Shown: piece after piece, positions 2,662-51,594 of the stretch
Layout: each line of letters starts with the position of its first letter
Numbering within the stretch: the first letter of the stretch is position 1
From: Cetorhinus maximus
Lineage: Eukaryota
DNA length: 64,000 nt
Direction: 5' to 3'
Assembly: GCF_964194155.1 (NCBI RefSeq)
Contig: NC_135898.1
Location: 37,944,001 to 38,008,000, forward strand
Notes under the pieces: generated by a model
Told to the model about the DNA's origin: nothing
What the model saw: only the letters and a program-made list of their open reading frames with translations
Database searches by the model: none
Translations under genes and position numbers: made by a program

Positions 2662-4157
2662 TAAAAACAAAAAACTGCGGATGCTGGAAATCCAAAACAA
2701 AAACAGAATTACCTGGAAAAACTCAGCAAGTCTGGCAGCATCGGCGGAGAAGAAAAGAGTTGATGTTTCGAGTCCTCATGACCCTTCAACAGAACTGAAT
2801 AATATTAGGAGAGGGGTGAAATATAAGCTGGTTTAAGGTGGAGGGGTGGGGGAAGAGAAGTTGGTGAGGGGGTGGTTGTAGGGACAAGCAAGCAGTGATA
2901 GGAGCAGATAATCAAAAGATGTCACAGACAAAGGAACAAAGAGGTGTTGAAGGTGGTGATATTATCTAAACGAATGTGCTAATTAAGAATGGATGGCAGC
3001 ACAGTCAAGGTACAGCTCTAGTGGGGGTGGGGTGGAAAGACTAACAGGGCATTAAAGGTATAGATTTAAAAATAATGGAAATAGGTGGGAAAAGAAAAAT
3101 CTATATAACTTATTGGAAAAAACAAAAGGGAGGGGGAAGAAACGGAAAGGGGCTGGGGGTGGAGGAGGGAGTTCAAGATCTAAAGTTGTTGAATTCAATA
3201 TTCAGTCCGGAAGGCTGTAAAGTGCCTAGTCGGAAGATGAAGTGCTGTTCCTCCAGTTTGCGTTGGGCTTCACTGGAAAAATGCAGCAAGCCAAGGACAG
3301 GCATGTGGGCAAGGGAGCAGGGTGGAGTGTTAAAATGGTAATCGACAGGGAGGTTTGGGTCTTTCTTGCGGACAGACCGCAGGTGTTCTGCAAAGCGGTC
3401 GCCCAGTTTACGTTTGGTCTCTCCAATGTAGAGGAGACCGCATTGGGAGCAACGAATGCAGTAGACTAAGTTGGGGGAAATGCAAGTGAAATGCTGTTTC
3501 ACTTGAAAGGAGTGTTTGGGCCTTGGACAGTGAGGAGAGAGGAAGTGAAGGGGCAGGTGTTGCATCTTTTGCATGGGCATGGGGAGGTGCCACAGGTGGG
3601 GGTTGAGGAGTAGGGGGTGATGGAGGAGTGGACCAGGGTGTCCCAGAGGGAACGATCCCTACGGAATGCCGCCAGGGGGGGGTGAAGGGAAGATGTGTTT
3701 GGTGGTGGCATCTTGCTGGAGTTGGCGGAAATGGCAGAGGATGATCCTTTGAATGCGGAGGCTGGTGGGGTGATAAGTGAGGACAAGGGGGACCCTATCA
3801 TGTTTTTGGGAGGGAGGAGAAGGCGTGAGGGCGGATGCGCGGGAGAAGGGCCAGACATTGTTAAGGGCCCTGTCAACGACCGTGGGTGGAAAACCTCGGT
3901 TAAGGAAGAAGGAGGACATGTCAGAGGAACTGTTTTTGAAGGTAGCGTCATCAGAACAGATGCGATGGAGGCGAAGGAACTGAGAGAATGGGATGGAGTC
4001 CTTACAGGAAGCGGGGTGTGAGGAGCTGTAGTCGAGGTAGCTGTGGGAGTAGGTAGGCTTGTAATGGATATTGGTGGACAGTCTATCACCAGAAATTGAG
4101 ACAGAGAGGTCAAGGAAGGGAAGGGAAGTGTCAGAGATGGACCATGTGAAAATGATG
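2662..4157 (-). mobile_element. 5'-truncated Penelope-like retroelement (RT C-terminus, GIY-YIG endonuclease, pLTR) in TFAM intron 1
   Basis: ORF 3173..3580 contains VYCIRCSQCGLLYIGETKRKLGDRFAEH (GIY-YIG); collinear with the longer copy at 18.3-21 kb. Confidence 0.92.
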
Positions 4158-4820
4158 CCGCACTGTTGGAAGTGCCGCACTGTTGGAAGTGCCGCACTGT
4201 TGGAAGTGCCGCACTGTTGGAAGTGCCGCACTGTTGGAAGTGCCGCACTGTTGGAAGTGCCGCACTGTTGGAAGTGCCGCACTGTTGGAAGTGCCGCACT
4301 GTTGGAAGTGCCGCACTGTTGGAAGTGCCGCACTGTTGGAAGTGCCGCACTGTTGGAAGTGCCGCACTGTTGGAAGTGCCGCACTGTTGGAAGTGCCGCA
4401 CTGTTGGAAGTGCCGCACTGTTGGAAGTGCCGCACTGTTGGAAGTGCCGCACTGTTGGAAGTGCCGCACTGTTGGAAGTGCCGCACTGTTGGAAGTGCCG
4501 CACTGTTGGAAGTGCCGCACTGTTGGAAGTGCCGCACTGTTGGAAGTGCCGCACTGTTGGAAGTGCCGCACTGTTGGAAGTGCCGCACTGTTGGAAGTGC
4601 CGCACTGTTGGAAGTGCCGCACTGTTGGAAGTGCCGCACTGTTGGAAGTGCCGCACTGTTGGAAGTGCCGCACTGTTGGAAGTGCCGCACTGTTGTAGGT
4701 GCCGCACTGTTGTAGGTGCCGCACTGTTGTAGGTGCCGCACTGTTGTAGGTGCCGCACTGTTGGAAGTGCCGCACTGTTGGAAGTGCCGCACTGTTGGAA
4801 GTGCCGCACTGTTGGAAGTG
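4156..4820. repeat. 17-bp minisatellite (GCCGCACTGTTGGAAGT) x ~39
   Basis: Directly visible; four consecutive variant units (GTAGG for GGAAG) at about 4683-4750. Confidence 0.99.
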
Positions 4821-5108
4821 ACTTTTGGATGAGACTTTAAACCAAGGCCCCTACCTGTCTGCTCAAGTGGATGTAAAAGATCCCATGGCACTATCTCAAA
4901 GAAGAGCTGCAGTTATCCCCAGCATCTGGGCCAATATTTCTCCCTCAATCAAAATCACAAAAAAAGATCTGGTCTTTATCACATTGCTGTTTGTCTGAGT
5001 TTCCGACAACAGTGTCTTCGGTCACTTCAAAAAGTAGGTCATTGGCTGTAAAGCAGTTTGAGATGCCCAGTGGTCATGAAAAGCACTACATAAATGCAAG
5101 TCATTTTT
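4801..5108 (+). mobile_element. Deu-domain SINE (SacSINE1/AmnSINE-like), lacking its 5' head
   Basis: GTGGATGTAAAAGATCCCATGGCACTAT core and ...TAAATGCAAG tail; related copies at ~1830-2175 (-), 12915-13312 (+), 25860-26190 (-), 42300-42780 (+), 48490-48700 (+) and 60150-60480 (+). Confidence 0.7.
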
Positions 5109-5487
5109 ATTTGATTGGCCCATCTCTTTCGAGTTATCAACAGTCACAGATTGCAACTCTTTTTGAGTACAATCACAGTTCTTGGTTTCCGGGAGTGGGA
5201 CATGAACCCACAACCCTCTGATTCAAAGGCGAGGGTGCTATGAACTGAGCCACAGCTGATGTTGCATTGATTTGTACCTCTTCCTAACTATGTTTCAGCA
5301 AACTGGCGGTGGTCATTTGATCCAATCATGAATGTTTTTGCCTCAAGGAAACATCTTTTGTGAGATGCAATGCTGTTAACAAGCACTAGATGCTGCCAGA
5401 CTATTTGTAGTTCAACTCTGGAAGCAAATGGCAAGAGTTTGGGTGACCCTTTCACCTTGTGATAAGTAATTCAGCCTGCTGCTGCTT

Positions 5488-5790
5488 AGCACATTCCTTA
5501 GATAATATCACCACCATCAACGTCTCTTTGTACTGTTGTCTATGACATCTTTAGCAATCTCTTCTTTGCCTCCACCTATCACTGGCCCTCTATCCAGCTC
5601 TACCTGTCCCACCCTCCTCTACCAGCTTATATTTCACGTCATTTCTCTATTTCCTTAGTTCTGATGAAGAGTCATACGGACTCAAAACGTTAACTGTGTT
5701 CCTCTCCGCAGATGCTGTCTGACCTGCTGAGTTTTCCAGCTATTTTTGTTTTTGTTTCAGGTTTCCAGCATCTGCAGTATTTTGCTTTTA
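5488..5790 (+). mobile_element. Solo Penelope-like pLTR with hammerhead motif
   Basis: Homologous to the 3' ends of the GIY-YIG elements; AGTT-CTGATGA-A-GAGTC-ATACG-GACTC-AAAACGT-T-AACT at 5657-5695. Confidence 0.85.
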
Positions 5791-6169
5791 CCTTTATACC
5801 AAGGTATGTATTGCCAGTATTTATAATAGATGAACCTCAAACCTCAAAGCTTAGAACACTGATGTTAATTGTATAAATTAATGTTAAGTTAATATAGTTA
5901 CGGCAATGTGGTTGACTCTTAAATATCCTCTCAACAAGGGCAATTAGGGATGGGCAATAAATGCTGGCCTAGCCAGTGACGCCCATATCCCATGAATGAA
6001 TAAAAAAGTTGGGGCACTCATTGGATAATGATTTGAGCATCCAGTAAAGAGACATTCACCCCCTTAAAAAATTCTTTCGAGATTCACCCCTTTAAAGGGG
6101 CTGTCAATTTATTTATTAGTTAATTTATTAATTAGTCTATTTTATTTTATTGGCGTACTCAAAAGAGTA

Positions 6170-9418: not shown

Positions 9419-9541
9419 GACGGACTCCCAACGTTAACTTTGTTTCTGCCCCCCCACGGATGCTGCCAGACCTGCTGAGTGTTTACAGCATTTTCTGTTT
9501 TTATTTCAGATTTCCAGCACCCATTGTGTTTTGCTTTTATT
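9419..9541 (+). mobile_element. Short Penelope-like pLTR 3' fragment with 25-bp target-site duplication
   Basis: GATGCTGCCAGACCTGCTGAG pLTR sequence flanked by 9394-9418 and 9542-9566 (22/25 identical). Confidence 0.8.
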
Positions 9542-10094
9542 GCTAGAGGCGTGTTTGGTTGAATTTTTCAGGAAAGGACAATTGTGGAATTTAAATACTA
9601 AAAGTCAAAACAGTCATATTTAAACACATTTTTAAGTGAGGCTAGACTGGCATTGGTCGCAAAATGTGAAAAAATATGTTGTTCTGTGACACCGAGAGAG
9701 TAATGCAAAATGGGACAGGATGGTTTATATGTTGCTTTTAAATTTAAAATTGTTTTCCATTAGCTCCTAGTAAAGCAAAGCTTCAATTATAAAAAGTTCG
9801 TCCTTGTTTTCAAATCCATCCATCCCTCCCTACCTCTGTAATCTCCTCCAACCTTACAACCCCCTGAGATATATGTGCTCCGCCAATTCCGGCCTCTTCA
9901 CCACCTCCGATTTTAATTGCCCCACCATTAGCAGCCACGCCTTCAGGTGCCAAGGCTTTAAGCTCTGGAATTCCCTCCCCAAATCTCTCTGCCTCTCTTC
10001 CTCTCGTTACTTGGCACTATCACAATGCTAAATGGGATAGTTTTCAAACAGATGTCGTAACTCAAGACTGGTTAACCATGAGGCGCTGCGGGCC

Positions 10095-11996
10095 TGGTGA
10101 AGTCACAACACAGGACTACTTGCATGCCAGACAGCACAAACAGCGAGTGATAGACAGAGCTAAGCGATTCCACAACTAACAGACCAGATCTAAGCTCTGC
10201 AGTTTTGTCACATCCATTTGTGAATGGTGGTGGACAATTAAACAACTCACTGGAGGAGGAGGCTCCACAAATAGCCCCATCCTCAATGATGGAGAACCCA
10301 GCACATCAGTGCAAAGGATAAGGCATTCCCAACAATCTTCAGCCAGAAGTGCTGAGTGGATGACCAATGTAGGAGAGGTCCCCAGCATCTCAGATGCCAG
10401 TCTTCAACAAATTCGATTCACTCCACGTGATATCAAAAAACATCTGAAGGCACTGGATACTGCAAAGGCTATGGGCCCTGACAACATTCCGGCAATAGTA
10501 CTGAAGACTTGTGCACCAGAACTTGCCGTGCCCCTAGCCAAGCTGTTCCAGCATAGCTACAACACAGACATCTACCTAGCTATATGGAAAATTGCCTAGG
10601 TATTCCCTGTACTCAAAAAGCAGGACAAATCCAACCTGGCCAATTACGACCCCATCAGTAAAGTGATGGAAGGGGTCATCAACAGTGCTATCAAGCATCA
10701 CTTGCTTAGCAATAACCTGCTCAATGCCGTTCAGTTTGGGTTTCGCCTGGGTCACTCAGCTTCTAACCTCGCTACAGCCTTGGTTCAAACATGAACGAAA
10801 GAGCTGAACTCCCGAGGTGAGGTGAGAGTGACTGCCCTTGACATCAAGGCAGCATTTGACCTAGTGTGGCATCAAGGAGCCCTAGAAAAACTGGAGTCAA
10901 TGGGAATCAGGGGCAAAGCTCTCCACTGGTGGGAATCATACCTAGCACAAACGAAGATGGTTGTGGTTGTTGGAGGTCAATCATTTCAGTCCAAGATATC
11001 ACTGCAGGATTTGCTGGGTAGTGTCCCAGGCCCAACCAACTTCAGCTGCTTCATCAATGACCTTCCTTCAATCATAAGGTCAGAAGTGGGGGTGTTCGCT
11101 GATGATTGCACAATGTTCAGCACAATTCACGATTCCTCAGATACTGAAGCAGTCCATGCCCAAAAGCAGCAAGACCTGGACAATATCCAGGCTTGGGCTG
11201 ACAAGCGGCAAGTAATATTCATGCCACAAAGTGCCAGACAATGATCATCTCCAACAAGAGAGAATCTAACCATCACCCCTTGACATTCAATGGTTTTACC
11301 ATTGCTGAATCCCCCACTATCAACATCCTGGGGGTTACCATTGACCAGAAACTGAACTGAACCAGCCATATAAATACTGTGGCTACAAGAGCAGGTCAGA
11401 GGCTAGGAATCCTAGGAATGTGATGAGAAACTCACCTCCTGACTCCCAAAACCTTGTCCACCATCTACAAGGCACAAGCCAGGAGTGTGATGGAATATTC
11501 TCCACTTGCCTGAACGAGTGCAGTTCCAACAACACTGAAGAAGCTGGACACCATCCAGGACAAAGCAGCCCGCTTGATTGGCACCCCATCCACAAACATT
11601 CACTCCCCCCACCACCGATGAACAGTGGCAGCAGTGTGTACCATCCACAAGGTGCACTATGGAAACTCATCAAGGCTCCTTAGGCAGCACCTTCCAAACC
11701 CACAACCACCACCACCTAGAAGGACGAGGGCAGCAGATAGATGGGAACACCACCACCTGGAAGTTCTCCAAGCCGCTCACCTTCCTGACTTGCAACTATA
11801 TCGCTGTTGCTTCACTGTCGCTGGGTCAAAATCCTGGAAGTCCTTCCCTAACAACACTGTGGGTGTACCTACACCATGTGGACTGCAGCGGCTCAAGAAG
11901 TCAGCTCATCACCACCTTCTCAAGGGCAATTAGGAATGGGCAATAAATGCTGGGCCAGCCAGTGATGCTCACATGCCCTAATGAATAAAAAAAAAG
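10095..11996 (+). mobile_element. 5'-truncated CR1/L2-group LINE (decayed RT, intact 3' tail)
   Basis: Broken ORFs with KAMGPDNIP, ALDIKAAFD and FADD motifs; ends AAGGGCAATTAGG..GGGCAATAAATGCTGG..GAATAAAAAAAA. Confidence 0.9.
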
Positions 11997-14883
11997 ATTG
12001 CTCCTTAAACCCTATATCTCGTTGACCAAATATTTGGCTTTAATGTCTCCTTACGTGTCTCGGTGTCAAATTTTGTTTGATAAAATTTGCAAAGCACCTT
12101 GGAACATTTTGTAAGTTAAATGAGCTATATAAGTGCAAGTGGCTGCTGGGTTTTGGTAGACAATAGATGTAAAACAAACTTTTCTTGTAAAAAATGTCAA
12201 AGGCAGAACTTTGTTAACATCATCTATCCCTTTAAAGCCACAAAGTTGAATGGAACCAGAGCAGAAACCTGACTAACCTTGCAATGAAGTGCTGAAAATA
12301 GGCACTCTCTAGGTTAACTAGAGGCTCATTGCTGTTGCTAGGGGAAGTTTGTCTTTAGAAAAAAAGAGTGGGGCAGCAGATCTGCCTCTCCCGCCAATAT
12401 TGAGCACAAGGGATGAGGGTGTCTCATGAATTGGCAGCTGCTTGTAAATCCTGCCTCCTTCTCTTGGGAGAAGCCTGTTATCAAAGTCGGAAAAAAACTG
12501 TCAGGGAAATGCTAGCTTTCTTTCATGTCATTATGTGGAGTAATGCAAGGCTTTTATTTATATGAATATTTATAGCAACAAGAATTACTCACTGTCCAGA
12601 AGGTGGTAGGACTGGCACATTTTTAATCAAATCCACAATCAAACAGGAGGCTGGCTCAGGCAATGAGAGAGAGTTAACTCATGTTTAGGTTTTATTTCTA
12701 GGGGTTCTGAACCCATGGTATGAGCTAGTTCTTTATCTTGTCCCTCAAATGTCAGATCAGGTTGTATTTGTCATTTTTCTCTTTCCCTATAGATAAAACT
12801 TTTGTTGTATGTGGACCACTCATCATCCACACCCCATCCCCTGTATTTGCATCTTCTTTTGTTTTCCCATGTTGCTGCATTATTTCACTGATGATCTTTT
12901 AAATATCGTTTTGACTCTCACCAGAGTCAGGAGGTTGATTTCAAGACCTACTCCAGAAATTTGAGCCCATAATCTAGGTTAACACCACAGTGCAGTACTG
13001 AGGGAGTGTGGTTTTTCAAAAGCGATGTTAAACCAAGGTTCCCTTTGTCCTGTCAGGCAGACGCCAAAGGTCCTATACACAACTTGAACAGCTGGGAAGT
13101 TCACTTTGTGTATTGGTCAATATTTATCACACAACCAGCTTCACTAAAACAGATTACCTAGTCATCATTATATTGTTGTTTGTGGGGCCATGCTGTATAT
13201 GAATTAGCTGTTGTTTTTCTACATGACAACAGTGTTTGTACTTCAGATGTACTTAACTGGCTGTGAAGAACATCCTGAGGTCCTGAAAGGTGCTATATAA
13301 ATGCAGGTTCTTTATGTCACCAATTTTTTAATCTCAGTTTGTAGGCCCTTTCATATATTAACTCCATCTTTGGGATTGTTGTATCTGTTAGATGTCACCC
13401 TTTCATCCCTATATTTGTCGCTTTTTTTCTATTTTTACTAAAATGACCCTCCATCTCTTAGCCTTCAGTTCTGAAGGAGATTACAAATCTGAAGCATCTT
13501 AACCCATCTTGTCCCTTGACAGATGCTGATTGACCTGCCATGTATATCCAACATTTGCAGTTTTTCCTTTTTTTTTCCTCAGTAACATTAGTCAGTGAGA
13601 CAGCCACAGTATCAGTAAACATTACAACCTTATCTTTGATTCTTAGGACCTTTCTCTCATACAGTTAAAAATAGTATTACCGTAGAATTCTTCAAAGGCA
13701 GTTTAAAAACAAAAAGGGTAGCTAACATTTGCATCCTCTGGCAGCCTCTGAGCTGTCTATCCTTGGAACGTGCCCCAACAATATTTTACATTTTAAAAAC
13801 AAATAGTGACCAAAAAAAACATTTTATTGTTAGAAATTATATTTGATAGCAATGAGTTGTTTACCACACAATATAAAATTGTGAACTGCCTGATATAAAT
13901 TGGAAGGAGATTTAAGTATGGCTCCTAAATTAGATCCAATTCCTCAGGCCTATCGGGGTTGGAGGCTGTGGACACATGATAGTTTGAGTTTAGGGTAGGG
14001 AATTTTGGATCAGTGACTGACTTTTGGTGAATGGATACTGGATAGAAAACCTTTGAAGGACTGACAGGGTTAAGAAAAACAAAGACCTAAGGACTATCTT
14101 CCAAGAAGGGAGAGTCTCCCAAGCAGTTGCAAGTGAAGTGAAAAATGTTCAATCAGGTTATGAATCTACCCACTCATTTAGGATCCCATCAATTGGAAAT
14201 GGAAGTGGAAGAGTCGGCATGAGCTGGTTCAGCCTGAACTTGGCGGGAAGGTTGTCTGGACAGGAATAGTCCTTAACAGCAGTTGAACAGAACGGGTTTT
14301 GTGTTCCCATTGTTTGATCGTAAAAATATCTGACTCACTGACAATGTAATGTCAGGTAAGAAGTCCAACAACTAAGTGTTGGTCATGTAGTCAAGGATGT
14401 TTGTGAAGAAGTAGAGTTGGGTGTCATCAACTTACATATGGAGAGGTACAGAACCATGAGATTTAGCTGCAGTTCTTGTAATTGTTGCATAAACAGAGGC
14501 CTGGCTTAATTAATTTTAGCATTTATAGTGACTATGATTTTGTTATAGATACAGCTAAATGGCAAGAATTTACTGTTTTTTTTATTCACTCATGGGATTT
14601 GGGCATCGCTGGCTAGGCCAACATTTATTGCCCATCCCTAATTGTCCTTGAAAAGGTGGTGGTGAGCTGCCTTCTTGAATTGCTGCAATCCATGTGGTGT
14701 AGTTACATACTTTTTCAAGGAATAGGAAATCGGAAATGAATGAACACTTAGAGATGAACAAGCCATTTGAAGCATAGTCAGTGTGGATTTGTAAATGACA
14801 GGTTGTAAATAATTGAATTTTTTTGTTTAGAAAAAGGAGTGTGGCGGGTGTGTATTTAGAAAATTCAGTAATATTTTATACTT

Positions 14884-17089
14884 AAAGCATGTACTATCAA
14901 AGAGAATGTAGTCGCATTGACCAAGAAATGACTAGGGCCAGAAATGAAAGTGTAGGGGGTAAATGGATCTATTGCAGGTAGGTAGAATGTGGATTTTGGG
15001 CACAAGTGCAATGTCCTCTTTCATTTAGTAAGTGATTTGGAAATATGAGAGGAACAATTTTGAAGTTTGCTGATGATGCTGAACTGGGGAGCATGGAAAA
15101 TTGCCAGAGATTGACTGGTTTGTGGACAGGTGGCAGATGCAGAGAAATATGGGATACCACATTTTGGAAAAAGAACATATCCTTAATGATTGTTAACAAT
15201 ACTAAGCCGAGGAATAGAGAGATCCAGGATGCAAATACACAGATCTTAATGGTATTACAAGCAGTAAAGACTATTAAAAAAGTAAAAAGCACTGGGTTTT
15301 GTATATAGCATTAAATATAAAAGCAAGGAAACAATATTAAATTGGTGCAAGACATTGCTTAGGCCTCAGTTGGATTATTGCAGTTCAGGCCCTCAAGTTT
15401 TAGGAAGGATATTAGAACAATGGGAAAGAATAATTAGAATTATACAGACAATGAGACGTTATAGTTATGGAAAATGCCTTGAAAAATTTATGGGGGTGAA
15501 GGTTAAGGATGAATCAAACAGTTTTTCAAAATTAAGTTTCAAGAGGGTGAACAAAGTTATAAAAAGGGTGGAAACCACAGCATAAGGTATAATGGCTGTT
15601 ATTTCTACCCAACTGCATGGCACTCTTACTGATTTCATGATGGTATGGGAAAACCTACATCTCGTTTCAGTCCAGCAAGGTTGATGAAAACAGAAGCAAA
15701 ATAGATGCAGATGCTGGCAATCTGAAATCAAAACAGAAAGTGCTGGGAAAACTCAGTAGGTCAGGCAGCAACTGTGAAGAGAAAGAGTTAATATTTCAGA
15801 TCAATGAATCTTCAGGTTACTGAGAACCTTAATTTTGAAAAACTGTTTGATTCATCCTTAACCCCATAAATTTTCAAGGCATTTTCCATAACTATAACGT
15901 CTCATTGTCAACCAAAGCAGTGCAATGCAAGTTGCATAATACCACAATAAAATATACAATACTCCAGTCAAACCACACCTTGAGTAGTGTCCATTGGTGA
16001 GACAGTGGCGAATGCAAATGGAATATCTTCCCAGAAACCTAAAGCTCTGCAAGGTTTTTGTCCCACCCCATATTTAATAAGACTTCTGAATATCAGTCTA
16101 ACTACATTATTGAACCGCAACCTGCTCCATACAACAGAGGTTCTCAGTAACCTGATGAAGATTCATTGACCTGAAATATTAACTCTTTCTCTTCACAGTT
16201 GCTGCCTGACCTACTGAGTGTTCCCAGCTCTTTCTGTTTTGATTTCAGATTGCCAGCATCTGCATCTATTTTGCTTGTTTTCATCAACCTTGCTGGACTG
16301 AAACGAGAAATGTAGGTTTTCCCATACCATCATGAAATCAGTAAGAGTGCCATGCAGTTGGGTAGAAATAACAGCCATTATACCTTATGCTGTGGTTTCC
16401 ACCCTTTTTATAACTTTGTTCACCCTCTTGAAACTTAATTTTGAAAACTGTTTGATTCATCCTTAACCTTCACCCCCATAAATTTTTCAAGGTATTTTCC
16501 ATAACTATAACGTCTCATTGTCAGTATAATTCTAATTATTCTTTCCTATTGTTCTAATATCCTTCCTAAAACTTGAGGGCCTGAACTGCAGGCAATAATC
16601 CAACCGAGGCCTAAGCAATGTCTTGCACCAATTTAATATTGTTTCTTTGCTTTTATATTTAATGCTATATACAAAACCCAGTGCTTTTTACCTTTTTAAT
16701 AGTCTTTACTGCTTGTAATACCATTAAGATCTGTGTATTTGCATCCTGGATCTCTCTATTCCTCGGCTTAGTATTGTTAACAATCATTAAGGATATGTTC
16801 TTTTTCGAAAATGTGGTATCCCACATTTCTCTGCATCTGCCACCTGTCCACAAACCAGTCAATCTCTGGCAATTTTCCATGCTCCCCAATTCAGTATCAT
16901 CAGTAAATTTCAAAGTTGTTCCTCTCATATTTCCAAATCACTTACTAAATGAAAGAGGACATTGTACTTGTGCCCAAAATGCACATTTTACCTACCTGCA
17001 ATAGATCCATTTACCCCCTACGCTTTCATTTCTGGCCCTAGTCACTGCTCGGTCAATGCGACTACATTCTCTTTGATAATACATGCTTT
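14884..17089. repeat. Large inverted duplication: arms 14884-15829 and 16138-17089, ~308-bp spacer
   Basis: Mirror-image ORFs (14969..15292- vs 16681..17004+; 15045..15308+ vs 16665..16928-); arms are reverse complements with scattered substitutions; content is decayed CR1 plus a pLTR fragment. Confidence 0.97.
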
Positions 17090-18320: not shown

Positions 18321-21033
18321 AAGATAAAAGCAAAATACTGTGGATGCTGGAAATCTAGAACAAAAACAAAAATACCTGGAAAGACTCAGCAGGTCTGACA
18401 GCATCTGCGGAGAAGGATACAGCTGACGTTTCGAGTCCGTATAACCTTTCATCAGAACTAAGACATACAGAAATGAGATGAAATATAAGCTGGTAGAGGG
18501 GGGTGGGACAGATAGAGCTCGATAGGGGGCCAGTGAAAGGTGGAGGCCAAGAAGAGATTGCCACAAGATGTCATCGACAAAAGGGTGTTGACAGTGGTGA
18601 TATTATCTAAAGGATGTGCTAATGGGGACATTAAGGGTAGCAAGCTAGTGACAGATGGCCCTACTGGGGGTGGGGTGAGGGGAAGGGATCAAAATGGGCT
18701 AAAAGGTGGAGATGAAACAATTAAGTGAAATAAATTTAAAAATAGGAGGGAAAAGAAAAATATGTTTGTAAAGAAATTATAAATTATTGGAAAAAGGGGG
18801 ATCGGAAAGTGGGTGGGGATGGAGGAGAGAGTTCATGATCTGAAATTGTTGAACTCAATATTAAGTCCGGAAGGCTGTATAGTGCCTAGTCGGAAGATGA
18901 GGTGCTATTCCTCCAGTTTGTGTTGAGCTTAACTGGAACATTGCAGCAGGCCAAGGACGGACATGTGGGCATGAGAGCAGGGTGGTGTGTTGAAATGGCA
19001 AGTGACATGGAAGTCTGGGTCATGCTTGCGGACAGACCGAAGGTGTTCCGCAAAGCGGTCACCCAGTCTGTGTTTGGTCTCTCCAATGTAGAGATCATCG
19101 CATTGGGAGCAGTAGACTAAATTGAGGGAAGTGCAAATGAAGCGCTGCTTCACTTGAAAGGAGTGTTTGGGCCCTTGGATGGTGAGGAGGGGGTAAGTAA
19201 AGGGGCAGGTGTTACACCTTCTGCGATTGCTTGGATAGGTGCTGTGGGAGGGGGTGAGGTGTAGTGGGTGATGGAGGAGTGGACCAGGGTTTCCTGGAGG
19301 GAATGATCCCTGCGGAAAGCCACCGGGGGGGGTGAAGGGAAGATGTGTTTGGTGGTGGCATCATGCTGGAGTTGGTGGAAATGTTGGAGGATGATCCTTT
19401 GAAAGTGGAGGCTGGTGGGGTGATAAGTGAGGACAAAGGAGACCCTATCATGGTTCTGGGAAGGAGAGGAAGGTGTGAGGGCAGGTGTGAGGGCAGATGC
19501 GCGGGAGATGGGCTGGACACGGTTGAGGGCCCTGTCAACCACCATGGGTGGAAAACCTCGGTTAAGATAGAAGGAAGACATGTCAGAGGAACTGTTTTGG
19601 AAAGTGGCATCATCAGAACAGATGCGACGGAGGCGAAGGAACTGAGAGAATGGGTTGGAGTTCTTACAGGATGTGGGGTGTGAGGAGCTGTAGTCGAGGT
19701 AGCTGTGGGAGTTGGTAGGCTTGTAATGAATATTGGTGGACAGTCTATCACCAGAAATTGAGGCTGAGAGATCAAGGAAGGGAAGGGAAGTGTCAGAGAT
19801 GGACCATGTGAAAATGATGGAGGGGTGGAGATTGGAAGCAAAATTAATATTTTCCAGATCCAGACGAGAGCATGAAGCGGCACCGAATTAGTCATCGATG
19901 TACCGGAGGAAGAGTTGTGGGAGGGGGCCTGAGTAGGACTGGAACAAGGAATGTTCCACATACCCCATAAAGAGACAGGCATAACTGGGGCCCATGCGGG
20001 TACCCATAGCCACACCTTTTACTTGGAGGAAGTGAGAGGAGTTTAAGGAGAAATTGTTCAGTGTGAGAACAAGTTCAGCCAGATGGAGGAGAGTAGTGGT
20101 GGATGGGGATTGTTCAGGCCCCTGTTCGAGGAAGAAGCGGAGAGCCCTCAGACCATCCCGGTGGGGGATGGAGGTGTAGAGGGATTGGACGTCCATGGTG
20201 AAGAGGAGGCAGTTGGGGCCAGGGAACTGGAAATTGTTGATATGATGTAGGGCGTGAGAGGAATTGCGGATGTAGGTGGGAAGGGACTGGACAAGGGGAG
20301 AGAGAATGGAGTCAAGATAGCAAGAAATTAATTCCATGGGGCAGGAACAGGCTCACACGATCGGACTGCCGGGACTGTCCTATTTGTGGATTTTGGGTAG
20401 GAGATAGAAGCGGGCCGTCCGAGGTTGGGAGACTATGAGGTTGGAAGCTGTGGAGGGAAGATCTCCAGAGGAGATGAGGTCAGTGACAGTCCTGGAAACA
20501 ATGGCTTGATGTTCAGTGGTAGGGTCATGGTCCGGGGGAGGTAGAAGGAAGTGTCTGTGAGTTGACGCTCAGCCTCTGCAAGGTAGAGGTCAGTGTGCCA
20601 GACAACAGCACCACCCTTGTCAGCGGGTTTGATGACAAAGTCAGGATTGGACCTGAGAACGGAGTGTGGCAAGTTCAGAAAGAGACAGGTTAGAGTGGGT
20701 GAGAGGAGCAGAGAAATTGAGACGACTGATGTCACACCGACAGTTCTCCATGAAAAGATCAAGAGCAGGTAAAAATCCAGAGAGAGGGGTCCAGGTGGAG
20801 GGAGAATATTGGAGGCGGGTAAAAGGATCCGTTGAACGGGGAGAGGACTCCTGCCCAAAGAAGTGAACACGGAGACAAAGGTGGCGGAAGAAGAGTTCAG
20901 CATCGTGCCGAGCCCGAAATTCATTGAGGTGAGGGCATAAGGGTATGAAACTGAGTCCTTTGCTGAGCACTGAATGTTCAGCATCAGAGAGGGGAAGGTC
21001 AGAGGGTATAGTGAATACGCGGCCGGGGCTGGG
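18321..21033 (-). mobile_element. Penelope-like retroelement, long decayed copy (RT, GIY-YIG, pLTR with tail)
   Basis: ORF fragments IKPADKGGAVV, LFTMDVQSLYTSIPH, GVAMGTRMGPSYA, LRYIDD, LYIGETKHRLGDRFAEH. Confidence 0.95.
18421..18459 (-). ncRNA. Minimal type I hammerhead ribozyme motif with intact core
   Basis: Minus strand reads AGUU-CUGAUGA-A-AGGUU-AUACG-GACUC-GAAACGU-C-AGCU: CUGANGA and GAAA boxes, stem I, partly paired stem II, palindromic ACGU stem III. Confidence 0.65.
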
Positions 21034-22061
21034 CCGCCATTTCCGCCAACTCCAGCATGATGCCACCACCAAACACATCTTCCCTTCACCCTCCCCCAGC
21101 GGCTTTCCGCAGCGATCATTCCCTCCGGGACACCCTGGCCCACTCCTCCATCACCCCCTACACCTCAACCCCCTCCCACAGCACCTTCCCATGCAACCGC
21201 AGAAGGTGCAACACCTGCACCTTTACTTCCCCTCTCCTCACTGTCCAAGGGCCCAAACACTCCTTTCAAGTGAAGCAGCATTTCACTTGCACTTCTCTCA
21301 ATTTAGTCTACTGCATTCGCTGCTCCCAATGCGGTCTCCTCTACATTGGAGAGACCAAACGCAGACTGGGTGACCGCTTTGCGGAACACCTTCGGTCTGT
21401 CCGCAAGCACGACTCAGACCTCCCTGTTGCTTGCCATTTCAACACACTACCCTGCTCTCATACCCACATGTCCGTCCTTGGCCTGCTGTAATGTTCCAGT
21501 GAAGCTCAACGCAAACTGGAGGAACTGCACCTCATCTTCTGACTAGGCACTTTACAGTCTTCTGGACTTAATATTGAGTTCAACAATTTCAGATCATGAA
21601 CTCTCTCCTCCAACCCCACCCCCTTTTTCCAATAATTTATAATTTTTTTACAAATATATTTTTCTTTTCCCTGCTTTTAAATTTATTTCACTTAATTGTT
21701 TCATCTCCACCTTTTAGCCCATTTCGATCCCTTTCCCCCAACCCCACCCCCACTAGGGCCATCTGCCACTAGCTTGTCCTCCTTAATGTCTCCATTAGCA
21801 CATCCTTTAGCTAACATCACCACCGTCAACACCCATTTGTCCTTTTGTCTATGACATCTTTGGCAGTCTCTTCTTGGCCTCCACCTATCACTGGCTCCCT
21901 TTCGAGCTCTACCTGTCCCACCCCCCTCTACCAGATTATATTTCATCTCATTTCTGTATGTCTTAGTTCTGATGCAGGGTCATACAGACTTGAAACGTCA
22001 GCTGTATCCCTCTCCGCAGGTGCTGTCAGACCTGCTGAATTTTTCCATGTATTTTTGTTTT
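21034..22061 (+). mobile_element. Inverted 3' segment (GIY-YIG plus tail-less pLTR) of the same Penelope-like insertion
   Basis: ORF 21057..21491 is GIY-YIG; the whole 18321-22061 unit is flanked by TGATTATTAATCTTT (18306) and TGATCATTAATCTTT (22062). Confidence 0.93.
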
Positions 22062-23021
22062 TGATCATTAATCTTTGTTTCCTACCTCATCGATTTCCTA
22101 CCCAAGCCAATAAGTTACCTCCAGTTGCATATACCTTATTTTCTTTACTCATCTTTTGTGTGGAACCTTTTGGAAGTTTGTATGAATAACATTCATAAAC
22201 ACTCCATTATCTATCACATTAGTTACGTCAAGAGCTTCAACTAGGTTGGTTAGACATGACTTAACCTTTAGCTACTTTCCTTGGTTAGATGACAAACGGC
22301 ACCCCGAGCAAAAGATTTATTCATCGATGATTGCAATATTGCAAACTCACAGGCTTTGAGCTCCATTATGTATTTTTCATTGAAAACTTTTTTTGTTGCA
22401 GATAACACAGTATGTACAAATACATAGTTTGAAAATTCCAAAGGTATCCAGCTATTACTATGACAACAGGAAACCAGGGGTAAATACCAATATTAATGTG
22501 CACGGACAAACAGACCTAGACAAAATATATAGAATACAAATTTAAAACTGGTTTACAAATAACAGTTGCCAACGTGGATTAATTTTGTGAACTTTTTTTA
22601 TTTGGACAAAAAAGTGAAAGATGCACAAGCTGTGTGATTTTTTTAAATATAAGTTTTAACAATTTTAAAAGCTTTTTTTAAACAAAAACAAATCCACAAT
22701 TAACAGCCATCAGTTATCAGAAGTAAAGCAAAGCCTCCTTCACATGTTGCTTTTACAAGGAATTCCATTCTGTCTCAATGCTTTGTGATTTTAAGCCAGT
22801 GATATCACTATGAAAAGCCAAACTCCTGAAGGCACTGCCTTAAAGTGACTAGTTGGCATTAATCCAGCTTCTGTACATCATGGGCCAGCCACTGTGGACA
22901 TCAGACTGAACAAAGCAAAATACTGCAAATGCTGGAAATCTGAAATAAAAAAAGGAATATTCTGGAAACACTCAGGTCAGGTAGCATCTGTGCAGAGAAG
23001 AAGATACGGTTTGTGCTTCAG

Positions 23022-23064
23022 AGGGTTCTGATGAAGGGTTATTAAGACCTGAAACATTAACCCT
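23022..23064 (+). ncRNA. Minimal hammerhead motif with compensatory stem I (older pLTR subfamily)
   Basis: AGGGUU-CUGAUGA-A-GGGUU-AUUAA-GACCU-GAAACAU-U-AACCCU; preceded by an inverted pLTR arm at ~22913-23000. Confidence 0.6.
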
Positions 23065-24443: not shown

Positions 24444-24489
24444 CTACATCGCATACTTCTGAGTCCAGTCTCTTGCTTGTTTGTTGTAC
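24444..24489 (-). CDS. UBE2D1: UBE2D1 exon 7 coding part (YNKQARDWTQKYAM*)
   Basis: 46 nt to TAG; exons sum to 444 nt = 147 aa + stop, the canonical UBE2D length. Paralog identity (D1) is assigned by synteny with TFAM and CISD1. Confidence 0.95.
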
Positions 24490-25626: not shown

Positions 25627-25794
<168 letters not shown>

Positions 25795-26805: not shown

Positions 26806-27210
<405 letters not shown>

Positions 27211-27218
27211 CTACTCAC

Positions 27219-27250: not shown

Positions 27251-27350
27251 CTAAACATTGAAGGCAAGAGATATTAAGCAATATTTAGAACAAAGTCTCA
27301 TTCAAAATAAATTTAAAAATGCAAATCTTAAAAAGAAAAAATACCCTTAC

Positions 27351-27414
27351 TATCATCTCCTGCTGGACCTGCTGAACACTGAGCTGGTGGGTCTCGTTGC
27401 AAGTCTTTCAATTC
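27351..27414 (-). CDS. UBE2D1: UBE2D1 exon 2 (ELKDLQRDPPAQCSAGPAGDD)
   Basis: 64 nt, AG/GT-bounded, clear UBC4/5-family sequence. Confidence 0.95.
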
Positions 27415-35729: not shown

Positions 35730-36882
35730 AACGATGGGTAGACCCATCGCTTCAGCCTGTTCCTGTCCCATGAACTTATTTCTTCCTAACTTGACTTTTT
35801 TTTCTCCCTTGTCTAGTCTTTTCCCACCTATATTCGCGATTCGTCTGATGCCCTACATCATTTCAACAATTTCCAGTTTCCTGGCCCTAAGTGCCTCCTC
35901 TTCACTATGGCCCTCCAATTCCTCTACACCTCTTGACCTCATCAGGACATTCTGAGAACTCTTCGCTTCTTCCTTGAACGAAGGCCCAAACAGTCTCCAT
36001 CCACCACCCTCCTCCCCGCCCCCGGCTGAACTTGTTCTCTCATTGAACAATTTCTCCTTTAACTTGTCTCACTTCCTCCAAATAAAAGGTGTGGCTATGG
36101 GTACCTGCATGGGCCCCAGTTATGCATGTTTTTTTGTGGAGTATGTGGAACATTCCCTGTTCCAGTCCTACTGAGGCCCTCTCCCACAATTTTTTTTCCC
36201 TATACATTGATGACTATATCAGTGCCACTTCCTGCTCTCATTTGGAACAGGAAAAACTCATCAATTTTGTTTTCAGTTTCCACCTTCCTCTCACCTTTAC
36301 ATGGTCCAACTCCCTTCCCTGACTTCTCTGTCTCCATTTCTGGGGATAGACTGTCTACTAATACTCATTACAAGCCCACTGTCTCCCACAGCTACCTCGA
36401 TCACACCTCCTCACACCCTGCTCCATTCCATTCTCCCAGTTTCTCCATTGCATCTCTCCTGATGATAATACTTTCCACAATGGTGCTTCCAACATGTCTT
36501 CCTTTTTCCCTCAACCAAAAAATTCCCCCCACAACCGTGGTTGACAGGGCCTTCAACTGCGTCCGACCCATTTCCTACACTTCAGCCTTCACCTCCTCCC
36601 CTCCCTTCCAGAAACATGATAGGGTTCTCCTTGTCCTCACCTTCCACCCCACCAGCCTCCATATCCATAGGACCATCCTCCGCCATTTCTGCCAACTCCT
36701 GCATGATGCCATCAAATACACCTTCCCCTCCCATCAGCATACCAAAGGGACCATTCCCTCAGTGACACTTTGATCCACTCCTCTATTACCCCCAACATGT
36801 CATCCCCTTCCCATGCAATCGCAGGTGGTGTAACACCTGCCCCTTTACCTCCTCACCATCCTAGGCCCCAAACACTCCTTCC
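35730..36882 (+). mobile_element. Old, internally deleted Penelope-like RT fragment
   Basis: GVAMGTCMGPSYA, YIDD and ISGDRLSTNTHYKPT remnants. Confidence 0.85.
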
Positions 36883-39628: not shown

Positions 39629-40510
39629 ATAAAAGCAAAGAACTGTGGATGCTGGAAATCCAAAACAAAAACAAAAATACCTGGAAAAACTCAGCAGGTC
39701 TGGCAGCATTGTTGGAGAGGAGCACAGTTGACGTTTCGAGTCCTCATGACCCTTCAACAGAACTAAGTAAAAATAGAAAAGGGGTGAAATATAAGCTGGT
39801 TTAAGGGGGGGTTGGGACAAGAAGAGCTAGGTAGAGGGCCAGTGATAGGTGGAGATAACCAAAAGATGTCACAGACAAAAGGACAAAGAGGTGTTGAAGG
39901 TGGTGATATTATCTACAGGAATGTGCTAATCAAGGGTAGAAAGCAGGACAAGCAAGGTACAGATAGCCCTAGTGGGGGTGGGGTGGGGTGAAGGAATCTA
40001 AAAAGGCTATTGAGTTCAACAATTTTAGAACATGAACTCTCTCCTCCGTCCCCACCCCCTTTCCGATTTTCCCCCTCCTTTTTGTTTTTTTCCAATAATT
40101 TATATAGATTTTTCCTTTCCCACCTATTTCCATTATTTTAAAATGTGTTTCCATCCATTGTTTTATCTCTACCTTTTAAGATTCCTTCACCCCACCCCCA
40201 CTAGGGCTATCTGTACCTTGCTTGTCCTGCTTTCTACCCTTAATTAGCACATTCCTTTAGATAATATCACCACCTTCAACACCTTTGTCCTTTTGTCCGT
40301 GACATCTTTTGGTTATCTCCACCTATCACTGGCCCTCTACCTAGCTCTTCTTGTCCCAACCCCCCCCCCTACCCTAAACCAGCTTATATTTCACCCCTTT
40401 TCTATTTTTACTTAGTTCTGTTGAAGGGTCATGAGGACTCGAAACTTCAACTGTGCTCCTCTCCACAGATGCTGCCAGACCTGCTGAGTTTTTCCAGGTA
40501 TTTTTGTTTT
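39629..40510. mobile_element. Head-to-head inverted pair of Penelope-like pLTRs, single insertion with a perfect 14-bp TSD
   Basis: Arms 39629-40006 (-) and 40008-40510 (+); TGACTTGTAAAGTT at 39615-39628 and 40511-40524. Confidence 0.93.
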
Positions 40511-40534
40511 TGACTTGTAAAGTTTCCCCTTTCA

Positions 40535-42016: not shown

Positions 42017-42300
42017 AAGTCACAAGTTCAAGATGGGGGGCAGGAGGTTTAGGGGGGATGTGAGGAAAAATTTTTTTACCCAGAGGGTGGTGATGCTCTG
42101 GAATGTGCTGCCTGGAAAGGTGGTGGAGGCAGGTTGCCTCACATCCTTTAAAAAGTACCTGGATGAGCACTTGGCACATCATAACATTCAAGCCAAGGGC
42201 CAAGTGCTGGTAAATGGGATTAGGTAGGTCAGGTGTTTCTCACATGTTGGTGCAGACTCGATGGGCCGAAGGGCCTCTTCTGTACTGTATGATTCTGTGA
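42017..42300 (+). mobile_element. CR1 LINE 3' end
   Basis: [28 protein letters not shown] motif and CR1-type 3' UTR. Confidence 0.8.
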
Positions 42301-42408
42301 AGTCTGACTCCAGGGCCTGCAGCTTAGAAATCTAGGCTGATACCCCAGTGCAGAGCTGTGGAATGCTGCATCTTTGGAGGAGCTGCCTTTCAAGTGAGAT
42401 GTTAAACC

Positions 42409-42512
42409 TCCAAAGAAGAGTCATCCAGGCTCAAAATGTTAACTCTGTTTCTCTCTCCACAGATGCTGCCAGACCTGCTGAGTTTTTCCTGCATTTTCTG
42501 TTTTTATTATTT
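42409..42512 (+). mobile_element. 104-bp pLTR fragment inserted into a Deu-SINE, with 10-bp TSD
   Basis: ATGTTAAACC (42399) and ATGTTAGACC (42513) flank it; the insert begins at a decayed hammerhead core. Confidence 0.7.
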
Positions 42513-43814: not shown

Positions 43815-44280
43815 ATGGTTCCAAGGATGAGGAACTTCAGTTTAGAAAATTTGTTCGGAGAAGTTAGGATTGTTTTCCTTAGAGAAAAAAAGGTTGAGAG
43901 GAGATTCGATAGAAGTATTCAAAATCATGAGGTGTCTGGCCAGAGTAGATAAGGAGAAACTGCTCCCACTCATGAGAGGATCGAGAACGAAAGGGCACAG
44001 ATTTCAAGTAATTGCCAAAAGAAGCAAAAGTGATATGAGAAAAAGCTTTTTTGCACAGTGAGTTGTTAGGGTTTGGAATGCACTGCCTGAGCATGTGGTG
44101 GAGGCAGGTTCAATTGAAGCATTCAAAAGGGAATTAGACTGTTATCTGAAAAGGATGAATGTGCAGGATTACGGGGAAAAGGTAGGGAATGGCTATGGAG
44201 TTGCTCATTCAGAGAGTCGGTGCAGACATGATGGGCCAAATGACCTCCTTCTGCACTGTAACAATTCTGTGATTCTATTC
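43815..44280 (+). mobile_element. CR1 LINE 3' end
   Basis: LFSLEKKRLRGDSIEVFKIM; ends in TTCTGTGATTCTATT. Confidence 0.85.
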
Positions 44281-44479
44281 AGTTCCCCTCTAAAGAATTT
44301 GTAGACTCTGCTTCAACAATGGTCTGCGACAGAAAATTCTCACAACCACCCATCGTAAAATAAAATTCCAATATCCCTTTTAATTCTTTCATAATTATTT
44401 TAAATGTGTGCCCCCTCCTTACTATCTCACCAATGAGGAGAAACAATCTGTGGCTATTTTTTAAACCATCATGTCAGAA

Positions 44480-45172
44480 GGGCCTTGGAGTACATGTCCA
44501 TAGATCCCTGAAGGCAGCAGCACATGTAGATAAGGCGGTTAAGAAGGCATATGTGATACTTGTCTTTATTAGCCGAAGCATAGAATATAAGAGCAGGGAG
44601 TTTATGTTGGAGCTGTATAAAATGCTGGTTAGGCCATAGCTGGAGTACTGTGTGCAGTTCTGGTCGCCACACTATAGGAAGGATGTGATTGCACTGGAGA
44701 GGGTGCAGAGGAGATTCACCAGGATGTTGCTTAGGCTGGAGCATTTCAGCTATGAAGAGAGACTGGATAGGCTAGGGTTGTTTTCCTTAGAACAGAGAAG
44801 GCTGAGGGGGAACCTGATAGAGGTATACAAAATTATGAGGGACATAGATAAGGTAGATAGGAAGAAACTTTTCCCCTTAGCGGAGGTGTCAATAACCAGG
44901 GGGCATAAATTTAAGGTAAGGGGCAGGAGGTTTAGAGTGGATTTGAGGAAAAACTTTTTCACCCAGAGGGTGGTTGGAATCTGGAACACACTGCCTGAAA
45001 GGGTGGTAGAGGCAGGAACCCGCACAACATTTAAGAAGTTTTTAGATGAGCACTTGAAACAGCATAGCATACGGGCCAAGTGCTGGAAAATGGGAATAGA
45101 ATAGACAGGTGCTTGATGGCCAGCACGGACATGATGGGCTGAAGGGCTTGTTTCTGTGCTGTATCATATTCT
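44480..45172 (+). mobile_element. CR1 LINE 3' end (150-aa ORF2 remnant)
   Basis: ORF 44652..45104: QFWSPHYRKDVIALERVQRRFTRML...LGLFSLEQRRLRG. Confidence 0.9.
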
Positions 45173-45477: not shown

Positions 45478-46309
45478 TACACAGCAAGACCTGGACAACA
45501 TTCAGGTTTGGGCTGATAAGTGGCAAGCAACATTCATGCCACACAAATGCCAAGCAAAGACCAACCACAACAAGAGAGAATCTAACCATTTCCCCATGAT
45601 ATTCAATGGCATTGCCATCGCTGAATTCCCCCACTATCAAAATCCTGGGGGTTACCATTGACCAGAAACTGAACTGAACCAACCATATAACTACTGTGGC
45701 TACAAGAGCAGGTCAGAGGCTGGGAATTCTACAGTGAAAAACTCACCTCCTTACTCCCCAAGCCTGTCCACCAAATACAAGACATAAATTAGGAGTTTAA
45801 TAGAATAATCTGCACTTGCCTAGATGAGTGCAGCTCCAAAAGCACTCAAGAAGCTGGTCACCATCCAGGACAAAGAAGCCTGCTTGATTGACTCCTCATC
45901 TACCACCTTCAGCATTCTCTCCCTTCACCCCTGATGCACAGTGGCAGCAGTGTGTACCATCTACAAGATGCACTGCAGCAAATCACCAAGACTCCTTCGA
46001 CAGCACCTTCCAAACCCACGACCTCTACCACCTAGAAGGACAAGGGCAGCAGATAGATGGGAACACCACCACCTGAAAGTTTCCCTCTAAACCACTCACC
46101 ATCCTGACTTGGAAATATATCACCGTTCCTTCACTGTCGCTGGGTCAAAATCCTGGAACTCCCTCCCTAACAGCACTGTGGGCATACCTACACCACATGG
46201 ACTGCAGCAGTTCAAGAAGACAGCTCATCACCACCTTGTTAAGGGCAATTAGAGATGGGCAATAAATGCTGGCCCAGCCAGCGAAGCCCACATCCCATGA
46301 ATGAATAAA
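45478..46309 (+). mobile_element. LINE 3' fragment (10095-11996 family)
   Basis: Collinear with 11165-11990, including the 3' tail. Confidence 0.88.
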
Positions 46310-46539
46310 GTTCATCAACCTGAAACATTAAGTCTGGTTCTCTTGCTGCAAGCCTTGCTGGGTATTGCAGCATTTTCTGTTTTTATTTATAATTTTATTA
46401 TGGTTTGAATTTTAATTTTGATTACATAATTGTTTAACTATTTGTGTTTTGTGGCATTTGAGACTGGGGCAACTCAGTGTCACCCAAGATCATGTTTCAA
46501 TCAGTCCTATCTCACCCGCTCCACGACCAAAGTCCATCA

Positions 46540-47042: not shown

Positions 47043-47245
47043 CTAAGGTGGGGGGGGCCCCACCTTAGACCAGCTTATATTTCACCCCTCTCCTAATTAT
47101 ACTCAGTTCTGCCGAAGGGTCATGAGGACTCGAAACGTTAACTGATTTCTTCTCCACCGATGCTGCCAGACCTGCTGAGTTTTTCCAGGTAATTCTGTTT
47201 TTGTTTTGGATTTCCAGCATCCGCAGTAGCTTTTAGCTTTTTGTT
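47043..47245 (+). mobile_element. pLTR insertion with an 11-bp 5' fold-back and 10-bp TSD in CISD1 intron 1
   Basis: AGAATCTGCA at 47033 and 47246; CTAAGGTGGGG/CCCCACCTTAG hairpin at 47043-47068; hammerhead-like motif at 47103-47145. Confidence 0.88.
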
Positions 47246-50200: not shown

Positions 50201-51350
50201 TAAATGATCGATTGGATTTAGAAGCTAAAATGTTAACATAAAGCTTTCAAAAATATATTTTAAAGCTGTGGAATTATTTTAGCATAATGGAGAAATTTAT
50301 TAATCTACAAATATAAAATTTAACTTTTCAGGACCAGTGTTTAACATTAATTATGAAGTTAGTAAGCCACTTAAAAATCCAATTACACCTCATTCAGCAA
50401 AGTATAACATTTTTAAAAGTCTTTACAGGAAGACATCACAGTGTAACAGTGAGTGTTTTCGTGAGATTACTGATTGCTTAGAGATTGCACTCTGGGACCT
50501 CAACTGTGCAGCCATTGGAGGAGGAAAGAAGAACAGCACTTCTGGGTTTCCACATTATCCTGTGCATGTACAAAGTCCCTAAGTTGCCATCATTTTCAGT
50601 GGGGTAATGCCATGGAGTAACAACTGGAAATGCTGACAGTTTTGCAGTGATTACCACTGCAAAATCTCGGCCTTTGTTGTTTCTGTGTACACTCTCCTTT
50701 GTGTGGGTTGGAAGGTAGAGCTCAGTACTAATTATTCTGCATTGGATAGCAGCATTCAATAATTTTACAACCTTTCAGGCCTTCTGTAGACTGAGTTGGG
50801 ATAGGGTAAGCTGTTGTGCCATTTCCACAATGCCCTTAATAACAATATTTTTAAAGAAAAGCCTCCCAAGATCTCAGAATCCAGGACTGCGTCATAATGG
50901 TAATTGCCTTTGATTTGTTGTTTACTTCTATGTTTTAAAAAAAAACCTTGATCACTGTAATCTGCAGAACCTGGCTCAACACACTCTTGATCATAATGGG
51001 AAATTTCTTTAGTGTTTATGTAGTGTACATGAGCTGCTTCCAGTTCATTCACTAGGTGATGCCAAGGCTACCATTTAATTGCCTACATTATAGTTAGTTA
51101 ATAAACTGTAACATTTTAATTATAGCCTTGATACCTCTCTTGAAAGACAAAAGCATGTCTTTGAGAGAGAATGATTACTGAGTGACTTACTATTAAGACA
51201 AGCAATTTTCTCATACACCTGTGTTCATGTTTATAAGTTAGTTACAATACATTTATATAGCCTGCCTTTAGCATAAGCATTCATTTATTTCACATCACCA
51301 TGTGGATTTTATACCAAGTAGAGCACAGTGATATTCTTGGTTACCCACTG

Positions 51351-51594
51351 AAAACAAAATACTGCGGATGCTGGAGATCTGAAATAAAAACAAAATGCTG
51401 GAAAAACTCAGCAGGTCTGGCAGCATCTGTGGAGAGAAACAGAGTTAATGTTTCAAGTCCAAAATGACTCCTCTTTGGAACTGAAGAGAGATGGGACGGA
51501 TCAGTTCTGAAGAGGAGTCATATTGGACTAGAAACTTTAACTCCATTTCTCTCTCCGCAGATGCTGCCAAACCTGCTGAGTTTTTCCAGCATTT
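51351..51594. mobile_element. MITE-sized inverted pLTR pair carrying two back-to-back hammerhead motifs
   Basis: Left arm (-) 51351-51483 and right arm (+) 51502-51594 are reverse complements; the right arm reads CAGTT-CTGAAGA-G-GAGTC..GACTA-GAAAC. Confidence 0.85.

Follow-up and report, generated by a model that had tools for sequence, protein, structure and literature searches.

Minimal hammerhead ribozymes of type I layout have been described in metazoan Penelope-like elements, where they are defined by the absence of helix III and loop 3, an extra residue separating 9 from 10.1, a G10.1-C11.1 pair and a palindrome at 15.2-16.2 (Cervera and De la Pena, 2014, PMC4209133). Motifs arranged in this way, with C-G-U-C at their end, are given for fish, lamprey, frog and snake in the supplementary alignment of that paper, and in coelacanth and frog thousands of copies per genome were reported. 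A schistosome motif did not cleave as a monomer and cleaved at a low level as dimers (PMC4209133). A search of one supplement file of this paper for cartilaginous-fish terms gave no match. Here we describe such motifs in a stretch of 64,000 nucleotides from Cetorhinus maximus (assembly GCF_964194155.1, contig NC_135898.1, positions 37,944,001 to 38,008,000), referred to as the window, and in the genome to which it belongs. In the younger subfamilies of the Penelope-like carrier element, the A at core position 6 appears to have been replaced by U and then by C, while the other core letters and most of the stem pairs were kept.

The motifs share with the published ones the type I layout, a short stem I, the extra nucleotide after A9, the G10.1-C11.1 pair, the lack of a helix III loop and the palindromic C15.2-G16.2, as well as the location in the pseudo-long terminal repeat (pLTR) and the occurrence as thousands of mostly single copies and opposite-strand pairs (PMC4209133). 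In contrast to them, stem II has 5 bp, and the younger subfamilies carry U6 or C6, which lies outside the published CUGANGAH. The first-pass annotation of the window had proposed minimal type I hammerheads in Penelope pLTRs, with an ACGU palindrome suited to dimer pairing, and both the layout and the pLTR position bear this out. It had further taken them for an extremely reduced, loop-less version with an extra purine; these features are those of the published definition, and the loop-less minimal hammerhead in Penelope pLTRs is already published. Both stems were recovered by an RNAalifold consensus. Stem cells are paired in 91% of cases versus 17-43% when the stems are slid, and stem II has a probability of 0.86-1.00 in seven of eight folded copies and of 0.32 in one C6U7 copy. 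The nucleotide between 9 and 10.1 is an invariant A (alignment A2), and the pair 10.1-11.1 is G-C in the main lineage and A-U in the old family. A scan with Rfam covariance models gave three matches at E values up to 10, none of them to a hammerhead family. With a strict motif descriptor, the single match in the window was the copy at 23022 and a further 200 kb gave no match, so that profiles were used instead.

A profile built on intact genomic copies gave 17 matches in the window, all but one of which include some of the hammerhead, and none in the reversed window or in reversed 200 kb. Five pairs (15813/16152, 18421/21965, 23010/23022, 39726/40414 and 51442/51502) are each the two arms of a single event, so that the 17 matches correspond to about 12 insertions. 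The repeat family, annotated before with about 15 copies, is therefore real. Its annotated density of one copy per 4-5 kb is near the value in the window (about 3.8 kb) and does not extend to the genome: 800 kb of evenly spaced genome stretches contained 70 matches with a flank-only profile, 75 with the full profile and none in the reversed control. This is a density near one per 11 kb and gives, by extrapolation, roughly 350,000 copies in the 3.99-Gb genome.

Four window copies carry CUGUUGA or CUGCCGA. They had been read as CUGANGA, and the genomic counts identify them instead as the signature of younger subfamilies and not as decay. In one shared wider context, exact-core matches, which favor young copies, numbered 19,749 for U6, 5,023 for A6 and 7,195 for C6/G6 (G in 6 of 100 among the matches listed). 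A further 10,662 exact matches have C at 10.4; among the matches listed, 93 of 100 of these have the matching G, and 92 of the 93 are C6. The exact-core total for C6 is about 16,500. When positions 6 and 7 were left free in the CUGUUGA/CUGCCGA context, 12,737 exact matches were obtained, with A6 in 0 of 100 among the matches listed. The CUGANGA core of the older subfamilies has 5,023, 406 and 139 exact matches in three contexts; the younger subfamilies, with U6 or C6, depart from this consensus as a variant. At 20 long-ORF loci, which were picked by protein search for the open reading frame (ORF) and not by the RNA motif, the hammerheads that follow the ORFs are C6 or U6 and none is A6. Among the 70 flank-recruited matches in 800 kb, at least 28 are A6, 13 U6 and 4 C6, the other 25 being truncated, misregistered or too worn to score. 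A covariation of U6/C6 with the 3' strand of stem I (GUUGA/UCAAC, GCUGA/UCAGC) was considered and rejected, as CAAC is kept in nine of ten C6U7 copies. A change of G16.2 to C, which breaks the ACGU palindrome, is present in 3 of 100 U6 rows listed, two of them arms of one insertion, and also in copy L047; these copies are possibly a minor subfamily.

For the order of these changes, trees of the ORF 3' end were rooted on the most divergent copy (L046), with 46 copies and then with the 61 that had enough ORF out of 346 collected. CUGAAGA is basal, followed by CUGAUGA, CUGUUGA and the nested C6 forms, and the form with C-G in stem II comes last. Median end branches are 0.044 for 16 A6 copies, 0.031 for 20 U6 copies and 0.0055 for 24 C6 copies. 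An older sister family (L254-L283; in the window, copies 16152 and 23022) has a stem II of AGGUC/GACCU, a 3-nt loop and 139 exact matches, and keeps A6 in 90 of 100 among the matches listed. A6 is regarded as ancestral because this family and the published rows keep it. Read along the trees, the younger branch with intact ORFs shows A at core position 6 giving way to U, and U to C. By its title, a study by Lunse, Weinberg and Breaker of 2017 deals with small hammerhead variants that are linked to Penelope-like elements and act as dimers. In the literature covered, which does not include that study and the position-6 variants or cartilaginous-fish copies that it may list, we did not find a U6 stage, an A-U-C succession or a compensated stem pair following the loss of A6.

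C at core position 6 of a natural hammerhead occurs also in the A6C variant of phage Bcep176 (Perreault, 2011, PMC3088659; Naghdi, 2020, PMC7151607). The phage case is one motif, its stems are full and it was assayed in monomer form, whereas in Cetorhinus U6 and C6 mark whole retroelement subfamilies on a dimer-type scaffold known from sequence.

The remaining core is conserved in these subfamilies. Among nine subfamily majorities, variation is seen in none of 13 other core columns and in 30 of 56 columns of flanks and loops; for the time since A6 was lost, the corresponding counts are 0 of 13 and 24 of 56 (Fisher p 0.003). When the 5' core was left free, CUG..GAA was kept in 92% of 34,729 matches. 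When the 3' core was left free, GAAACGU(H) was kept in 83 of 100 among the matches listed; of the 17 that differ, 12 do so by CpG transitions only. Neither these searches nor the 17 U6/C6 copies recruited by their flanks reveal a further core change at the level of subfamilies. In the nine classes, stem II retains its five pairs and stem I its four inner ones, the fifth pair of stem I being broken in two classes. After A6 loss, stem II gained a compensatory change from U-A to C-G, a form present in about 9,900 copies, with 490 copies of the U-G half change.

Stem covariation, which had been proposed from the window copies, does not exceed shuffles in that set: 14 window copies plus two young loci gave 6 double-change cells versus 3.9 in shuffles, with 111 of 500 shuffles as high (244 of 500 for stem II alone), and several of the examples first given are one-sided wobble changes. 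Across subfamilies, covariation does appear. For 38 copies, 33 of them distinct, 15 double-change cells were counted versus 4.5, and 0 of 500 shuffles were as high; in stem II, the signal comes from two double changes that are independent of each other, the first pair being G-C or A-U and the fourth U-A or C-G, and relatedness of the copies inflates the shuffle control.

Window fragments match reverse transcriptase (RT) and GIY-YIG endonuclease domains in Pfam. A Penelope frame of 818-1040 codons was found in 19 of the 20 fetched long-ORF loci, the remaining one having been picked up in a wrong frame. The protein of L144 has 917 amino acids with RVT_1 and GIY-YIG matches and contains a C-x4-C-x2-C linker ahead of the endonuclease. 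A CX2-5CxxC linker between RT and C-terminal GIY-YIG is a mark of the endonuclease-containing Neptune/Nematis elements (PMC8557442). Judged by this Cys linker, the carrier is a Neptune-type Penelope-like element; an assignment to Poseidon was dropped because of it. A search of PDB sequences with the ORF gave no match. Within the pLTR, the hammerhead is found about 370 nt beyond the ORF stop. Where a 5' pLTR is present, the motif is about 150-180 nt upstream of the ATG, with the cut site about 150 nt before it. Six elements (L143, L146, L148, L150, L151 and L154) have two direct hammerhead copies about 3.3 kb apart around the ORF, and a single transcript can thus carry two. Sequencing data of three relatives contain about half of the words of a young element, with almost no informative depth at position 6 (contigs of two); two raw-read runs gave 2 and 0 reads.

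This arrangement was compared with that of non-LTR retrozymes, which likewise have type I hammerheads from Penelope pLTRs and were reported from one cartilaginous fish among 31 vertebrates (bioRxiv 10.64898/2026.07.22.740005). Retrozymes form short non-coding arrays in head-to-tail order, whereas the copies of the window are tips, single or inverted, to which remnants of the ORF are joined. None of the tandem arrays in the window contains a hammerhead, and the direct pairs in complete elements are the 3.3-kb pairs around the ORF.

All 156 of 156 analyzed U6/C6 copies extend at least 16 nt past the cut site, and the inserted copies end preferentially in two zones, about 64-72 and 100-118 nt beyond it. 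As the copies run past the cut site, the RNA copied into the genome was probably uncut there. A second conserved RNA element follows the hammerhead in all pLTRs (L150:4833-4900; in the window e.g. 47160-47230) and consists of a 7-bp long-range stem around a small hairpin. One of the two end zones falls inside this element and the other just after it; it is a candidate protein-binding or copying-start site. At the other side of the motif, 26 of the 156 copies start 0-9 nt upstream of C3, i.e. at stem I, where core-based recruitment hides shorter ones.

A further comparison is PAc, a Poseidon element of Anolis, whose hammerhead cuts only with protein and is dispensable for reverse transcription in vitro (Frangieh, 2024, PMC11167929). 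In PAc, too, the hammerhead is situated at the pLTR-ORF junction, the RNA template is uncut, and there are two copying start zones some 35-40 nt apart, making a tail (PMC11167929). However, the PAc ORF starts inside the hammerhead and the tail is in the ORF, while in Cetorhinus the cut site precedes the ATG by about 150 nt, and the two end zones likewise fall upstream of the ATG. Unlike PAc, the Cetorhinus ORF has the Cys linker of Neptune/Nematis.

On balance, we consider it somewhat probable that the younger motifs are damped hammerheads still under selection, which occasionally cut as dimers. The RNA copied into the genome would be uncut at the hammerhead site, as for PAc; fast cutting would strip the copying-start zone and the 5' leader. 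Two motifs would pair via ACGU and so build stem III, and the element's own protein would probably assist, as reported for the anole PAc element. Changes at position 6 would lower the rate and would be tolerated or favored, some cutting or core folding still being needed. In other ribozymes, A6C reduces cleavage without abolishing it (PMC3088659; PMC7151607), with a strong effect in Mg2+ and little effect in Mn2+; in one of them, the rate in 0.3 mM Mg2+ fell by some five orders of magnitude (PMC7151607). In a bolder form, which we put forward tentatively and with considerable doubt, the active branch would have tuned its hammerhead down stepwise (A6, U6, C6), and the outcome would be a conditional ribozyme that stays closed while on the template RNA and cuts only once the protein of the element or Mn2+ switches it on.

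Several observations weigh against the reading of damped, dimer-cutting hammerheads. ViennaRNA predicts the double-hammerhead dimer to be no better than two monomers (e.g., -23.7 versus 2 x -13.0 kcal/mol) and never as the cofold minimum (0 of 8 cases), and the U6U7 core is predicted to zip shut against the AACG strand, hiding the palindrome. By analogy with the tested ribozymes, A6C on top of a minimal hammerhead may be dead. The Fisher test is partly circular, most copies having been recruited by patterns that fix the core, and a 43-column downstream block is also conserved (7 variable columns), so that the constraint is not peculiar to catalysis. In the trees, A6 and U6 copies interleave with low support, and the line between them is poorly resolved. 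Younger clades contain two U6 copies and one A6 copy (L020), and copies picked for a long ORF are over-represented among the C6 rows, an effect that shortens the C6 branches. In the raw count of the flank-recruited matches, the old A6 copies remain the most numerous.

The main rival is a non-cutting structural role, which we regard as possible: the U6/C6 motifs would no longer cut, a hairpin-shaped fold being kept for protein binding, folding or translation and the core for structure or an overlapping signal such as a promoter element. The predicted closure of the U6U7 core, the conserved downstream block and the derivation of every copy from uncut RNA are in line with this. So are PAc, where cleavage is dispensable for reverse transcription in vitro and RNA ends were not seen at the cut site (PMC11167929), and the Naiad elements, which spread without canonical hammerheads (PMC8557442). 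Such a role agrees less well with the core: through six successive U6/C6 subfamilies, all of its 13 other unpaired columns, among them G12, A13, A14 and those of the ACGU palindrome, stay fixed; loop 2, N7 and H17 change over the same subfamilies, the pattern expected of a hammerhead core.

That the motif has been a neutral passenger since A6 loss, with the fixed core and the compensatory stem II pair arising by chance over a short lineage history, is unlikely. Chance would have to explain why flank and loop columns changed (24 of 56) and core columns did not (0 of 13), why the C-G form reached about 9,900 copies with either half change rare, and why no pair of stem II and none of the four inner pairs of stem I is lost in any of the nine classes. 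Its case is that few substitutions separate the subfamilies, that only one stem II double change falls inside the lineage, that two subfamilies have a broken fifth pair in stem I and that covariation is not significant in the window alone. We consider it very improbable that U6 and C6 motifs cut as well as A6 in the natural dimer or protein complex, position 6 being simply free in minimal hammerheads. The spread of the changes to tens of thousands of copies without loss of mobility, and the occurrence of three different letters, speak for this explanation, but A6 is present in every row consulted of the published metazoan alignment (PMC4209133) and in the older sister family, and A6C was deleterious in two tested ribozymes (PMC7151607, PMC3088659).

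The copies in the window are themselves passive insertion debris and mostly decayed, comprising 5'-truncated copies, inverted arms and bare tips. All 11 positions named in the first-pass annotation belong to the family, on the strands given there. The consensus CUGANGA...GAAACGU as written is intact in only one of the 11, the copy at 18421, where the first pair of stem II is an A-C mismatch. The ACGU palindrome is lost in copies 16152, 23022, 51442 and 51502.

At 2663..4157 (-), a 5'-truncated Penelope-like copy with RT end, GIY-YIG (3173-3658; Pfam E 6e-5), pLTR, hammerhead and tail is 89% identical to the intact element L143. Its hammerhead (2758..2797, -, profile match) belongs to the U6 subfamily (CUGUUGA) and has a decayed palindrome, GAAACAU. 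A very homogeneous 17-bp tandem array at 4156-4820 (39 copies, 99% matches) abuts the 5' break of this element. The pLTR fragment at 5486..5795 (+) contains the A6 hammerhead 5657-5695 with a G12A decay. Profile matches were also obtained for a short tip reduced to the tail and the hammerhead's 3' half (9420..9522, +) and, weakly (E 0.004), for an old, heavily decayed tip (13465..13560, +). An inverted duplication at 14884-17089 has arms of about 930 bp with 96% identity and a 341-nt spacer, and an old Penelope tip ends each arm: the left one at 15680..15822 (-, profile) and the right one at 16147..16281 (+), which is A6 with decayed stem I and palindrome.

A long broken copy with RT region and pLTR at 18321..21033 (-) is 84% identical to L143 over 2.7 kb (Pfam RVT_1 E 6e-7), and its hammerhead 18421-18459 has the only canonical core of the window. 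The inverted 3' part of the same insertion follows at 21034..22062 (+), with GIY-YIG region, pLTR and hammerhead 21965-22003 (A9C decay). A head-to-head tip pair at 22912..23064 (both strands) includes the hammerhead 23022-23064 (+), which has A6, a GGGUU/GACCU stem II and no palindrome. An internal ORF fragment at 35737..36880 (+), 75% identical to L143, has no hammerhead that we could find. A U6 fold-back insertion at 39631..40511 (both strands) carries two CUGUUGA hammerheads, 39726-39764 (-), intact for its subfamily, and 40414-40452 (+), with G16.2 changed. Decayed tips are located at 42413..42508 (+, profile) and 46317..46366 (+, weak, profile E 0.004). The C6-subfamily pLTR tip at 47059..47245 (+) has a hammerhead (47103-47145, CUGCCGA, 6-bp stem I) that is intact for its subfamily. 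A head-to-head tip pair of an older A6 family with a 6-nt loop 2 lies at 51360..51594 (both strands); its hammerheads, 51442-51483 (-) and 51502-51542 (+), are both decayed.

Among the neighboring features, exons of a UBE2D-like ubiquitin-conjugating enzyme were identified at 24440-27420 (-) by Pfam UQ_con (E 5e-27) and exon motifs. A CpG-rich zone at 40-42 kb may hold the start of this gene, with a possible first exon near 41400 (-); if so, the U6 fold-back at 39631-40511 lies in its first intron. Fragments of other long interspersed nuclear element (LINE) families are found at 828-1310, 9868-11977 (RVT_1 match 10795-11241), 42021-45163, 45760-46309 and 61703-62270.

The function of Penelope hammerheads has been called unclear, and it has been asked if they are mere parasites of the element (PMC8557442). 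In Cetorhinus maximus, natural A6, U6 and C6 forms exist on nearly one scaffold, in a lineage that spread on after A6 loss, kept the other core letters and restored a pair in its stem. The youngest copies of this genome escape descriptor searches in which CUGANGA is required. If the reading of a conditional ribozyme is true, the subfamilies would form a dated natural series, with tens of thousands of core variants, for testing what Penelope hammerheads are for.

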